A stretch of 64,000 bases of DNA from Bacteroidota bacterium (GCA_947453415.1 CANGGG010000006.1:2129-66128); one strand, 5' to 3'; counted from the first letter of the stretch, positions 44,664 through 51,208 are shown. Translations and numbers: made by a program. The notes: a model not told the origin generated them from the letters alone.

Positions 44664-45059
44664 TTAAAAAACAAATACCACCACGTACTTATCATACTCA
44701 TCAGATATGGCATATTTACCTTTTTTGAGGGTGCATTTTTTAAGTTCAAGTGTGTTGCAAATATCTTCGTTAAAGGTATAATCATCGTCTAGTAAAAAGT
44801 TGCCTGTGGCAAAGTATTTTAAAAACAATTTATCGGTAACGCTGCGTTTTAAAAAGTTAAATTGAATATGCTTTTCGTCTAACACATCTATGGTGGCCAG
44901 CACTTCATTTTCTTTTCTGCTTTCAGCGCTGCTTATAGATACATTACAAAAGTTAAACCCATTGCAATCTGGGGATTTGCCTAGGCTAACCAAATAATTG
45001 TTTTCAGTTTTAAAAAAAAGCAATATAAATAATGAAAAAAATAAAATTATTGGTTTCAT
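44664..45059 (-). CDS. Small exported hypothetical protein with G-K-x-x-D-C-x-G-F-x-x-C motif
   Basis: Signal-like N-terminus, Cys pair, C-terminal LKKGKY; last gene of the accessory operon. Confidence 0.7.
   Translation of the reverse strand: MKPIILFFSLFILLFFKTENNYLVSLGKSPDCNGFNFCNVSISSAESRKENEVLATIDVLDEKHIQFNFLKRSVTDKLFLKYFATGNFLLDDDYTFNEDICNTLELKKCTLKKGKYAISDEYDKYVVVFVF
44939..45059. repeat. ~100-120-bp direct repeat, copy 1 (copy 2 at 46158-46260)
   Basis: ATACATTACAAAAGTTAAACCCATTGCAATC.GGGGATTTGCC.AGGCTA ... AATAAAATTATTGGTTTCAT in both copies; copy 2 has an 18-nt in-frame deletion. Confidence 0.92.
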
Positions 45060-45066
45060 ATAATAA

Positions 45067-45903
45067 CTAATTTAACAATTTATCTATTTTATCACATAAA
45101 TCAATTTGAAATAATTTTTGTTCAACATTTGTATTCCCAAAATATAAGATTTCACCATTTTTAACTATTATATAAAGAGGAACAGCAGTTATTTTAAGTA
45201 AATCAATTGAATTAATGTCTTTTGCAAATAGATTATTTCCTCTATCATAATTTTCTGAGAGAATTTTTTTTGTTCTTATTATAGAATCTCTTCTAATAGG
45301 AAAATTCAATGTATAAAACTTCACTTTTTTATTAGTATAAATATCTTGAATTTCTGAATATTTTGAAAATCCAATTATACAATTACCGCAGTTAGTAGTC
45401 CAACAATCAATTACTTTGATTGTATCGTTTTTTGAAAACAACTCATTACTTAAATTATTTGAAGATATTGTTTCGAAATAGGGTAGTTTACTATTTATTA
45501 ATTGATAATTGTCCTTATTAAAATAATAATCTAACCACCATAACATGAAAACATAACACAATAAAGATGTAAGAAAAAACACAATAAATAAAAACCAATT
45601 ATTTTTTATTTTTTTAAATAAAAATTCATGAATAAATAAAAATAAAAATGGTGAAATTGAAATTGGAATTGTGTGGTAATTTTTATCAATAATCGTTAAA
45701 ATACAATATAAAACAGGACTTATTAATAATAAAAGTTTATAATATAAATTATCATTTTTTAAAAAATGCAAAATTACTAAAATAGAAAATGCATTTATAC
45801 TAAACTGTATAGGCCAATTAAAATATCCGCTTAAAAGAAATGTAATATTGAAAAATAATATCAATGTTATTTTTACCTTTTTATTTGTTTTAAAGTTTCT
45901 CAT
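45067..45903 (-). CDS. Membrane-anchored TlpA-like thioredoxin-fold protein
   Basis: N-terminal TM helices, then VIDCWTTNCGNC (WxxxCxxC) and cis-Pro loop TAVP. Confidence 0.8.
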   Translation of the reverse strand: MRNFKTNKKVKITLILFFNITFLLSGYFNWPIQFSINAFSILVILHFLKNDNLYYKLLLLISPVLYCILTIIDKNYHTIPISISPFLFLFIHEFLFKKIKNNWFLFIVFFLTSLLCYVFMLWWLDYYFNKDNYQLINSKLPYFETISSNNLSNELFSKNDTIKVIDCWTTNCGNCIIGFSKYSEIQDIYTNKKVKFYTLNFPIRRDSIIRTKKILSENYDRGNNLFAKDINSIDLLKITAVPLYIIVKNGEILYFGNTNVEQKLFQIDLCDKIDKLLN

Positions 45904-45942
45904 AATTTCAATATAAATGATTTTTTTTTTACCAACTAATTA

Positions 45943-46260
45943 TTAGTATCCAATTGATGCTGGGCCCTTTGATGGTTGATCAACTTGACAAGTTCCATCA
46001 CAACTATGGCGCCAAAACAATCCACATCCACTTACAGATGTACACTTCAATTTTGAGTTGCATATATCAGCTGTCGAAATAATTATTCCTCCGCAATAAT
46101 CATCACCTGAAACACAATTACAGTTAGGAGCCCCATCAATTCCTTTGCTGTTTATTAATACATTACAAAAGTTAAACCCATTGCAATCGGGGGATTTGCC
46201 AAGGCTACTTTTAAAAAAAAGAAATATAAACAATGAGCTAAATAAAATTATTGGTTTCAT
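45943..46260 (-). CDS. Fulvocin-C-related Cys-rich peptide with N-terminal export signal
   Basis: C-terminal PNCNCVSGDDYC...C....C....GCGLFWRHSCDGTC resembles the fulvocin C pattern (NCSC...DYC...C...C...GCG..W..C); N-terminus duplicated from 44664-45059. Confidence 0.7.
   Translation of the reverse strand: MKPIILFSSLFIFLFFKSSLGKSPDCNGFNFCNVLINSKGIDGAPNCNCVSGDDYCGGIIISTADICNSKLKCTSVSGCGLFWRHSCDGTCQVDQPSKGPASIGY
46158..46260. repeat. Direct repeat, copy 2
   Basis: See 44939-45059. Confidence 0.92.
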
Positions 46261-46630
46261 TGAGATTGAATGTAAAAAATTTACTTATTTTATATCGGTT
46301 TTTAGAAAACACATTGTAAAAAAAATTTAATGTATTAACGGGTAAAACATTAAAAATTATAAAAAATCTAAGTGGATATTTCGAGTTCTTTATTAATAAA
46401 AAAAACGCATCAGATTTTTTATAAACAATGGCGTTTTCAATTACAAAAATGGTATTCAATTCTATAAATTGAATATTATTTTGTCTCAAAAGTGTCCTTG
46501 CCTCAATACTTCTTACTGAAAAACATTCAATATTTCTTATAATATTTTTTTTAAATAACTCAATAAACCAACAACATACTGAACACCTATCATCATAGAT
46601 TATTACAATTCCTTTCATGATCTTATTCAA
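46238..46630 (-). CDS. DCC1-like thiol-disulfide oxidoreductase (DUF393)
   Basis: IIYDDRCSVC (DxxCxxC), KSDAF, Y..F.KNRY. Confidence 0.88.
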   Translation of the reverse strand: MNKIMKGIVIIYDDRCSVCCWFIELFKKNIIRNIECFSVRSIEARTLLRQNNIQFIELNTIFVIENAIVYKKSDAFFLLIKNSKYPLRFFIIFNVLPVNTLNFFYNVFSKNRYKISKFFTFNLNETNNFI

Positions 46631-50188: not shown

Positions 50189-50197
50189 GTAATCTTT

Positions 50198-50554
50198 TTA
50201 TAAATACTTTGCCATTAATTCATTAATTTCTGCTTTTACCTCTGGAGAAACAACCCATGTTTTAGTTGTAACAATTGTTTCTGAAAAATTAACTAAATTT
50301 ATTGATTTAGTAAAAATTCTTGTTTCTGTCTTCTCCTTTTTTTGTTTTGCACCTTCTGCATCTATCATAATAGCCTTTTCCTTCGCATCTAGTTCCATAA
50401 TTCTTTCTTTATCTTCTAAAGAAATTGAATTTTTTAAAGGAATATAATAATTCCCATTAGCTAATAAATCGACTTTTCCATTACCGTCATTTTTTTTAAA
50501 CGACATCATTGTTAAACCAATTAGGCTTAACGATAAAATTACTATTTTTTTCAT
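50198..50554 (-). CDS. Exported 118-aa protein, putative precursor/substrate of the SdpAB-like pair
   Basis: Signal peptide MKKIVILSLSLIGLTMMSF; first gene of the operon; Thr-rich segment at residues 76-99. Confidence 0.7.
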   Translation of the reverse strand: MKKIVILSLSLIGLTMMSFKKNDGNGKVDLLANGNYYIPLKNSISLEDKERIMELDAKEKAIMIDAEGAKQKKEKTETRIFTKSINLVNFSETIVTTKTWVVSPEVKAEINELMAKYL

Positions 50555-50709
50555 ATTTTTTTTGCGGTTGTAAAAACCTGCTGAAATTTTAATTCCGATA
50601 AATCGAAAGTTTAATTAAATAAAAATAATAAAACCTATACTCAATTATACTGCAGCTAAATTAGTTGGGTTTTGTGCTAGCAATTTTGGTGGTAAAAATT
50701 AAAATTACC

Positions 50710-50777
50710 TATTCATATTTGGATATTTTATTCATATATGAATAATTTATGTTTAATACAAATATAATATGCATATT
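50710..50777. promoter_or_regulatory. Candidate XRE operator sites
   Basis: Perfect palindrome TTATTCATATATGAATAA (50728-50745), imperfect copy TATTCATATTTGGATA (50710-50725) and AATATGCATATT (50766-50777) in the divergent promoter region. Confidence 0.55.
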
Positions 50778-50794
50778 TGAATATTAAAAGCATT

Positions 50795-51208
50795 ATGAGT
50801 AAAATAAATATAGAAATTGGTAAAAAAATAAAAATCAAACGACACGAAATAGGCTACAAACAAGAAAGTTTAGCCATAGAGTTAGGTATTTCACAATCGG
50901 CATTATCTCGCATTGAAAATGGCTCAGATAGTTTAGTAGTTGAAATATTATACTTATTAACTCAGGTTTTAAATACTCCAATTGGCTATTTTATCTCCGA
51001 CATAAATGGAGATTTATTTACAGCTATTTATTTGGAAAAAATTAAACTATTGGAAGAAATGTTATTAAAAAATGAAACCTTAATCAATCATCAAGTAAAA
51101 GTTATTAAACAATTAGAAGATCAAATCAAAGATTTGCAAGAAAAGGTATCACGAAAAAATAAAAAAATAGAAGAGTTAAAAGAAACAATTTCACATAAGA
51201 AAATTTAA
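50795..51208 (+). CDS. XRE-family HTH regulator with C-terminal coiled coil
   Basis: IGKKIK..R...GYKQESLA..LGISQSALSRIENG; heptad-rich C-terminus; ATG at 50795. Confidence 0.9.
   Translation: MSKINIEIGKKIKIKRHEIGYKQESLAIELGISQSALSRIENGSDSLVVEILYLLTQVLNTPIGYFISDINGDLFTAIYLEKIKLLEEMLLKNETLINHQVKVIKQLEDQIKDLQEKVSRKNKKIEELKETISHKKI

Follow-up and report, generated by a model that had tools for sequence, protein, structure and literature searches.

Bacterial homologs of HTTM/GGCX proteins are widespread and, to our knowledge, almost none of them has a known substrate. What is known about the role of SdpB in SDP production is genetic only, and the pairing of DUF5819 proteins with HTTM proteins rests on structure prediction only. 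According to the consulted part of one report, Bacillus subtilis needs both SdpA and SdpB to obtain the toxin SDP from SdpC, and SdpC homologs vary (PMC6818787). The consulted sections of a recent preprint cite MloH as a case in which bacterial homologs can carry out vitamin K-type carboxylation, and describe an HTTM-DCC1 fusion and a predicted complex with a DUF5819 protein that resembles the whole of human GGCX; in that model, menaquinol-7 lies close to Lys189, which is conserved, and to Trp195, six positions further along (10.64898/2026.08.19.745780). The role of the HTTM protein in linaridin clusters is stated to be unclear in the part of the source available (PMC9927463). Here we analyze a region (44664-51208) within a 64,000-nucleotide stretch of the genome of a freshwater Bacteroidota bacterium (GCA_947453415.1 CANGGG010000006.1:2129-66128), referred to below as the window. 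The region carries an island of eight genes, g1 to g8, the first three of which encode a small exported protein (g1), a membrane partner protein (g2) and an HTTM-type membrane protein (g3).

The g1-g2-g3 triad is conserved in many other Bacteroidota, while the remaining genes of the island are not found with it consistently. We therefore lean, with modest confidence, towards a composite island, in which one module (A) would be a periplasm-facing, menaquinol-dependent two-subunit enzyme that modifies or matures g1 and a second module (B) would be separate from it. The consulted portions of the literature on HTTM proteins, SdpAB and bacterial vitamin K-dependent carboxylases contain no description of the g2 partner family, of the tailed small proteins to which g1 belongs, or of a Bacteroidota HTTM system.

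A conserved triad with a tailed small protein

Eighty loci were fetched with an alignment of the HTTM protein, including the locus described here (79 non-self loci); one of them, L002, is a near-identical genome. A species-level genome collection contributed 158 stretches with HTTM relatives, and samples of 300 other Bacteroidota genomes (for the g2 profile and for fulvocin) or of 301 including our own (for DUF5819) were also searched. A g2-like open reading frame (ORF) lies immediately upstream of the HTTM ORF in 78 of the 80 loci, and tblastn finds g2 in 74 of the 79 non-self loci. Upstream of the g2-like gene, and ending no more than 250 bp from it, there is a co-oriented ORF of 80 to 226 amino acids in 72 of the 80 loci, which represent several orders. 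A small exported ORF, a protein with an FFAP motif and an HTTM protein thus co-occur across Bacteroidota, a positive outcome of the synteny check that a preliminary description of this DNA had proposed. The triad stands alone between OmpA-like and tilS-like genes (names from sequence reading) in about 29 Chryseobacterium loci, where no immunity or export gene was seen beside it; such a setting speaks against the core acting as a classical bacteriocin system and weakens the antagonistic function that the same description had ascribed to it. The triad is also carried by a 158-kb plasmid of Hymenobacter sp. (NZ_CP141187.1; 3655-5648 of the fetched stretch), in which every member except the HTTM protein is labelled 'hypothetical' and the small protein ends in ...LQSIMMKYQ.

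g1 has a signal-peptide-like N-terminus, a GNY..ISxED block and a C-terminal tail that ends ...INELMAKYL. The small proteins encoded at the 72 loci split into seven clusters that are unrelated by BLAST, and 71 of the 72 are signal-peptide-like by a crude heuristic that is not a proper predictor. Their C-termini are nevertheless alike. A Tyr is found among the last three residues of 71 of the 72 small proteins, the exception having Phe; in a control set of 282 ORFs, comparable in size and taken from these loci, 36 have such a Tyr. The tail Φ(-7)-x-x-Φ(-4)-Φ(-3)-x-[K/N/Q](-1)-Y(0), followed by 0-2 residues, is present in each of 26 sequences with less than 60% mutual identity, and hydrophobic residues occupy positions -7, -4 and -3 in fractions of 0.96, 0.92 and 1.00, respectively, of these sequences. 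A second common block, GNYxV...IS-x-E/D-D-Φ-x-x-L, follows the signal peptide. Paralogs of the small protein occur within single loci, with five in L009 and two each in L051, L058, L059 and L063. The high divergence, variable length and paralogy of these proteins are easier to reconcile with a client or precursor than with a fixed subunit, and g1 would accordingly be the substrate of g2 and g3.

The locus with five small proteins (L009, 7844-13336; Flavobacterium sp. ST-75) has four members of the g1-like cluster, several of which carry a C-D-C-D-K motif, and one of another cluster. In the midst of these five are the g2/HTTM pair, a DCC1-like gene and two short beta-lactamase-fold ORFs.

Direct searches of Pfam and NCBIfam gave no match for g1, g2, g3 or g8, and in the Atlas g2 falls only in unnamed clusters at the 0.90 lead level and g1 in no family. 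g3 is nonetheless an HTTM protein of the GGCX/SdpB kind. Its homologs (n=98) are mostly from Flavobacterium and Chryseobacterium, and many are annotated as HTTM/PF05090. PF05090 is matched by 13 of 19 aligned relatives of g3 (best E 1.3e-08) and the TIGR04033 export_SdpB model by 13 of the 19 at E <= 0.01 (best E 4.6e-9), while g3 itself matches neither, in the case of PF05090 at E <= 0.1. Searched against PDB, the g3 family profile finds GGCX chains only, with an E value of 0.002 for human GGCX. Two residues are invariant in the family, Lys176 (within an FSGFDK motif) and Trp182. Lys176 aligns with residue 187 of a GGCX chain. This residue is Lys218 when numbered along the 758-residue protein, since positions 86-273 of one construct are positions 117-304 of the full-length chain; we take Lys218 to be the catalytic base of GGCX. 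The K217A/K218A mutant chain of GGCX scores 16.6 bits against the g3 profile and the wild type 20.3 bits. The AlphaFold2 (AF2) model of g3 (pLDDT 82.2, pTM 0.82) was compared with known structures by Foldseek, and the top 16 matches are all human GGCX. Ranks 1-15 have TMq 0.54-0.63 and probability 1.00 over ~270 columns, rank 16 has TMq 0.35, and the first match other than GGCX has an E value of 1.4.

Ralstonia megaplasmid records also contain stretches that match g3, 23 records doing so over residues 137-282 at 34.7% identity. Among the 11 matches listed, 10 have no annotated feature under the match.

The g2 family is characterized by an N-terminal transmembrane (TM) helix and an invariant loop around YTGxxTGYGFFAPNV. 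A search of 1.84 billion proteins with the family profile gives 467 cluster representatives at E <= 1e-3, and in the 300 sampled Bacteroidota genomes the profile picks up 2 others, a poor estimate of frequency since only 10 candidates per genome were scored. An alternative ATG start at 50138 would shorten g2 to 200 amino acids; this is the start used in the preliminary description, and the Atlas record begins there. The HTTM and g2-type proteins are joined in a natural fusion of 521 residues in Chitinophaga rhizophila (L069, 9971-11536), with the HTTM part N-terminal and the partner C-terminal. Only two further fused proteins, P0158 and P0174, are present among the profile matches. One alignment (A5) intended for modelling the natural fusion was dropped, its g2 rows being misplaced.

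Binding of g2 to g3 is supported at the level of structure models. The predicted complex has an ipSAE of 0.82 (0.81, 0.82 and 0.84 in separate runs), compared with 0.00 for the best of three controls; the 0.82 mark is reached by 58 of 80 solved complexes and by 2 of 110 mismatched pairs, a calibration that is only rough, with own alignments supplied. Contacts agree between runs by at least 96% and the partner has a pLDDT of at least 81; the AF2 model of g2 alone has a pLDDT of 85.9. The modelled interface brings residues 70-85 and 111-123 of g2 together with residues 127-141 and 167-176 of g3, so that the conserved residues of the two proteins would face each other around Lys176.

The preliminary description had regarded g2 as SdpA-like and had named DUF5819 among the families to search for; neither assignment was upheld. 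None of 25 g2-family members matches the SdpA models at E <= 1, and an SdpA search that was positive for the B. subtilis control gave no match in our genome. Likewise, DUF5819 (PF19136) is matched by none of the 25 at E <= 1, none of 45 more distant members matches any Pfam model at E <= 0.01, and a DUF5819 search of our own genome did not pick up g2. DUF5819 members do not match the SdpA model either. With these searches and the profile comparison given below, g2 was rejected as a demonstrable member of either family; it resembles SdpA and DUF5819 by position, topology and modelled contact. True DUF5819 genes were found in 2 of the 301 sampled Bacteroidota genomes, in both cases immediately upstream of an HTTM gene, with a gap of 2 nt in one (L087, 1375-2816) and an overlap of 11 nt in the other (L088, 318-1836). 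The HTTM proteins of these loci are related to g3 (hhalign probability 97.6%). Thus the layout of a partner followed by HTTM recurs in Bacteroidota with a different partner family, and the g2 family defined here is a third partner family for HTTM proteins.

The partner encoded on the Hymenobacter plasmid lacks the GYGFFAPN loop and has NWTFGYFGHG. This variant hints at further partner subfamilies.

The island and its accessory genes

The features of the island are listed in Table 1. An ORF listing confirmed what the preliminary description had reported of the gene layout, namely eight co-oriented, tightly packed minus-strand ORFs, with a divergent XRE-family gene and prmC as neighbours, and its family assignments for g3, g4 and g5 were borne out as well; g7 agrees with it in having a CxxC thioredoxin-like domain, on weak matches. 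The genes are separated by 41 nt (g1/g2), 39 nt (g6/g7) and 7 nt (g7/g8), and elsewhere overlap, by 32 nt (g2/g3), 4 nt (g3/g4), 8 nt (g4/g5) and 23 nt (g5/g6). The AT-rich character noted earlier is also evident, the GC content of the island being 0.237 compared with 0.308 for the window; ten 1-kb bins in the whole window have a GC content below 0.25 and all of them lie inside 45000-50500. No strong intrinsic-terminator-like site was seen on the minus strand from g1 to g7, and the sole minus-strand candidate in the cluster is inside g8. Promoter-like sites number 67 in comparison with 59.7 expected, for a sigma-70 consensus that does not fit Bacteroidota. The XRE-family gene is 222 nt from g1 and is a possible regulator of the island. 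Metagenome contigs show that the island is present in lake and river samples.

Table 1. Genes and repeated segments of the island and its border, with positions counted from the first nucleotide of the window
Feature	Position	Strand	Product length	Description
g1	50198-50554	-	118 aa	Small exported protein, candidate substrate/precursor
g2	49536-50156	-	206 aa (TTG start)	Single-pass membrane partner of the HTTM protein
g3	48713-49567	-	284 aa	HTTM-type polytopic membrane protein, GGCX/SdpB-like
g4	46623-48716	-	697 aa	Exported, two beta-lactamase/PBP-fold domains
g5	46238-46630	-	130 aa	DCC1-like thiol-disulfide oxidoreductase
g6	45943-46260	-	105 aa	Exported Cys-rich peptide (10 Cys), fulvocin-C-related C-terminus
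g7	45067-45903	-	278 aa	Membrane protein with C-terminal thioredoxin-like domain
g8	44664-45059	-	131 aa	Exported protein, family not found
XRE-family HTH gene	50777-51208	+	143 aa	PF01381, E 2.4e-10; coiled-coil-like tail
prmC	51216-52076	-		Beyond the XRE-family gene
Duplicated 5' segment, copy 1	44928-45059	.		Start of g8; repeat families D1 and D2
Duplicated 5' segment, copy 2	46147-46260	.		Start of g6

The g4 product matches PF00144 in two stretches (E 4.7e-63). Enzymes with the beta-lactamase/PBP fold have the catalytic motifs SxxK, YxN and [KH][ST]G. A motif scan finds all three intact in the C-terminal domain of g4 (S420-S-S-K, Y516-C-N and H650-S-G), and none at the corresponding sites of the N-terminal domain, which has IGNITETY where Ser-x-x-Lys is expected. 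g4-like genes follow the HTTM gene in 3 of the 79 other loci (L009, L064 and L066 only). g5 matches PF04134 with 64.2 bits, compared with a cut-off of 27.8, and has the CxxC motif C16-S-V-C. DCC-type genes occur within 3 ORFs downstream of HTTM in 12 of the 80 loci (11 of the 79 others), in at least four arrangements, in which the DCC-type gene directly follows HTTM itself, or follows a GLPGLI/Porph_ging protein, an outer-membrane beta-barrel protein or a beta-lactamase-fold protein. A single locus, L066, repeats the order g1-g2-g3-g4-g5.

None of the 79 other HTTM loci contains g6, g7 or g8. The preliminary description had taken g6 for a fulvocin-like peptide, which stands for its Cys-rich C-terminus and not for a full-length member of the family: g6 scores 34.8 bits against NF033852, just under the cut-off of 35, and covers positions 103-149 of the 150 in the model (32.8 bits in the search of our own genome). 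g7 has ~4 TM-like segments and a C172-G-N-C motif in its C-terminal thioredoxin-like domain, for which the matches are weak (E 0.006 and 0.001; PF00085 at 16.9 bits compared with a cut-off of 23.5). g8 has 4 Cys by motif scan. The first ~40 residues of g6 and g8 are alike, with 87% identity over residues 1-38/44, and the remainders are unrelated. A repeat search finds the corresponding ~110 nt duplicated, as 61 nt at 92% and 52 nt at 90% identity. Fulvocin-related genes were found in 5 of the 300 other sampled genomes, with no HTTM nearby in the stretches fetched, although these numbers are small. In one genome (G131), a multi-TM protein with a thioredoxin domain like that of g7 (28-31% identity) comes after each of the two fulvocin-related genes. 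An XRE-type ORF flanks one of these pairs (L098), and two other fulvocin-carrying genomes have a beta-lactamase-fold ORF nearby.

Several further observations concern the island and its surroundings. When the window is compared with L002, a metagenome-assembled contig that is nearly identical to it, no more than 5 mismatches per 500 nt separate the two over the island (45500-50500). The figure rises to 31-40 per 500 nt at the XRE-family gene and prmC and falls back to 8-9 per 500 nt past 52500. The divergent patch in 50500-52500 is thus local and perhaps a recombination tract. Two contigs from metagenome runs of different studies, X17 (side of 143 nt) and X18 (side of 87 nt), join position 44821, in g8, back to 48759, which lies in the last 46 nt of g3; 16 other letters stand between the joined ends in both. 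Such a join would be compatible with the 3.9-kb segment from g4 to g8 being tandemly duplicated or present as a circle, or it could reflect a difference in gene order in a related strain. Outside the island, the minus-strand ORF at 40953-43088 (711 aa) starts with a signal-peptide-like sequence and contains many NN-x-x-YV-x-GG-type repeats; judged from its sequence, the product resembles a beta-propeller of the Kelch type to which a C-terminal domain of the Bacteroidota secretion type is attached.

Readings of the locus

The composite reading assigns g1, g2 and g3 to module A, with g5 as an accessory. In the enzyme proposed, g3 would provide a GGCX-like membrane core that includes the conserved Lys. 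g2 would add one TM helix and a periplasmic alpha/beta domain, and its GYGFFAPNV loop would pack on the conserved face of g3 around this Lys. g1, presumably exported via the Sec pathway, would be modified or matured by the complex after being recognised, most likely by its conserved amphipathic tail, which has Tyr at its C-terminal end. If GGCX and MloH are a guide, the chemistry may employ reduced menaquinone and O2 to generate a strong base. The genome has a match to MenA (254 bits) and no match to VKOR; because VKOR is lacking, a redox role is left for g5, which with its CxxC motif would act on the redox side, perhaps in quinone recycling. Module B would consist of g6, g7 and g8, and possibly g4: a fulvocin-like disulfide-rich secreted peptide, a membrane thioredoxin and a paralog that shares the leader of the peptide. 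g4 could belong to either module.

A number of results weigh against this interpretation. Concerning g3, the protein alone is below the threshold of all curated Pfam and NCBIfam models, and in the profile alignment with GGCX, which is only marginally significant, His160 of GGCX is not conserved. Concerning the substrate, no residue other than the terminal Tyr was found to be conserved across the small proteins, and therefore no modification site can be named; they have no Glu-rich region in common, and the hidden Markov model cross-matches between their clusters are partly driven by the signal peptides. Concerning g2, the ipSAE of the complex is a model score that may owe something to a memory of GGCX structures. 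The g2 model has no match in the PDB fold search, GGCX included (best E 0.16), and the same search gives no correspondence between g2 and the lumenal/clamp region of GGCX. When the g2 family was compared with a 21-row DUF5819 alignment by hhalign, the result was not significant (probability 2%, E 0.024; 0.6% with a single sequence), although this same alignment places the GYGFFAPNV of g2 on the NWKLFAPDL of DUF5819. Finally, g4 and g5 lie between the two modules and all junctions are tight, so that the eight genes may still work together in this organism.

A bolder extension of the composite reading is that the triad is a bacterial menaquinol-dependent protein modifier, catalyzing carboxylation or another strong-base reaction. 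The tailed proteins would then be the first natural protein substrates of bacterial GGCX homologs, their tail would be a C-terminal counterpart of the GGCX propeptide, and the DCC1-like protein would recycle quinone in place of VKOR. We regard this extension as speculative and unlikely.

Apart from this extension, the co-inherited family of small exported proteins has a simple C-terminal signature that can be tested, and since species of Chryseobacterium and Flavobacterium that can be cultivated and are genetically tractable also carry the triad, the function of bacterial enzymes resembling the vitamin K-dependent carboxylase becomes directly testable.

Maturation of a toxin in the manner of SdpABC offers a different account of the same triad. 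Here g2 and g3 would only promote proteolysis of exported g1, giving an antimicrobial or signalling peptide, and no vitamin K-type chemistry would take place. The matches of g3 relatives to the SdpB export model point this way, as does the shared architecture of a partner directly upstream of HTTM together with a Sec-exported, highly variable precursor; the need of B. subtilis for SdpA and SdpB, and the variability of SdpC homologs, are also in line with it. However, g2 matches no SdpA model, the small proteins are without a hydrophobic toxin-like C-terminal domain, no conserved immunity-like membrane gene lies beside the triad, and in Chryseobacterium the triad occupies a fixed chromosomal site between housekeeping-type genes. 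We consider this account unlikely.

A single integrated pathway, close to what the preliminary description had proposed, would have all eight genes contribute, with g2/g3, the peptidase g4 and the redox proteins g5 and g7 acting on g1 and/or g6 to give one or two antagonistic peptides. The uniform orientation, the short intergenic distances, the common low GC content and the single divergent XRE-family gene all speak for such a pathway. The gene order of L066 agrees with it too, as do the DCC gene, the beta-lactamase-fold ORFs and the extra small proteins after HTTM in L009. It fares poorly when other genomes are considered: g6-g8 are absent from the other HTTM loci, g4 and the DCC-type gene accompany only 3 and 11 of the 79, the triad is alone in most loci, and fulvocin-related genes occur without HTTM in 5 other genomes, paired with a g7-like gene in one of them. 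The idea that the eight genes form one conserved system is thus not sustained, and the integrated pathway has in our view only a small chance of being correct. What emerges in its place is a core triad with a recurrent accessory gene (DCC) and occasional ones (beta-lactamase-fold and fulvocin-like).

It could also be supposed that g1 is a third periplasmic subunit or a regulator, and that the target of the enzyme is not a protein but, for example, a quinone, a lipid or a component of the cell envelope. The N- and C-terminal blocks common to the small proteins could form a docking scaffold, the small proteins offer no conserved candidate target residue, and MloH, a bacterial GGCX homolog, acts on a small-molecule intermediate according to the consulted part of the preprint (10.64898/2026.08.19.745780). 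Against this, divergence of the small proteins far outpaces that of g2 and g3, to the extent of seven BLAST-unrelated clusters, and their range of 80 to 226 amino acids and 1-5 copies per locus would be unusual for an obligate subunit. We judge this proposal to be quite improbable. Chance adjacency of genes without a common function, for which it might be argued that g1, g2 and g8 are in no known family, is extremely unlikely and already contradicted for g1-g3 by the retention of the triad in 72 of 80 loci from several orders, by the natural fusion and by the complex model.

Comparison with described systems

g6 is alike to the fulvocin C family (NF033852) in that its C-terminal ~50 residues match the Cys-rich end, and also in its neighbour, g7 coming after g6 much as a membrane thioredoxin-like protein comes after the full-length members in genome G131; it differs in having 105 residues compared with ~220 in full-length members, and in its score just short of the cut-off. 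Linaridin clusters, such as that of corynaridin with crdG, resemble the island in combining an HTTM protein with a hydrolase-type gene in a ribosomal peptide cluster, as far as the consulted part of the source goes (PMC9927463). Compared by description, their precursors are cytoplasmic and leader-bearing and their hosts are Actinobacteria. More generally, and in contrast to the pathways of ribosomally synthesized and post-translationally modified peptides, g1 appears from its sequence to be a Sec-exported protein of 118 amino acids rather than a short cytoplasmic precursor. MloH of the malonomycin pathway is, in the preprint as consulted, a bacterial HTTM enzyme with a DUF5819-like region. It is set apart by description, being a fused protein of an actinomycete that acts on a polyketide-peptide intermediate in a cytoplasmic pathway.

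The B. subtilis SdpABC/YitPOM systems are three-gene systems in which, as here, a partner directly upstream of HTTM is combined with a Sec-exported, rapidly diverging precursor. In our triad the precursor gene comes first, g2 has no SdpA match and there is no immunity pair like SdpI/SdpR. The small proteins described here have the ...[K/N/Q]Y tail instead of a hydrophobic toxin domain, and the host is a member of the Bacteroidota, with export to the periplasm.

Human GGCX shares with g3 the fold of the membrane domain, and the invariant Lys of g3 aligns with its Lys218. The active side of GGCX points away from the cytoplasm, an orientation that fits a client exported by the Sec pathway. GGCX is a single chain of 758 residues with a lumenal clamp, whereas two proteins are found here and g2 has no detectable likeness to the lumenal domain. 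In addition, there is no conservation of His160, the putative docking element lies at the C-terminus and is not an N-terminal propeptide, and the small proteins have no conserved Glu cluster of the Gla type.

The DUF5819-HTTM(-DCC1) arrangement, in so far as it is described in the consulted sections of the preprint, has in common with the triad a single-TM partner directly upstream of HTTM and a link to a DCC1-like protein. It also shares a Lys with a Trp six residues later (K176 and W182 in g3, Lys189 and Trp195 in the preprint) and a partner loop modelled at the conserved pocket. g2 belongs to another sequence family, and the DCC protein is encoded by a separate gene in our island. The same sections name no substrate, whereas here a conserved family of exported proteins accompanies the pair.

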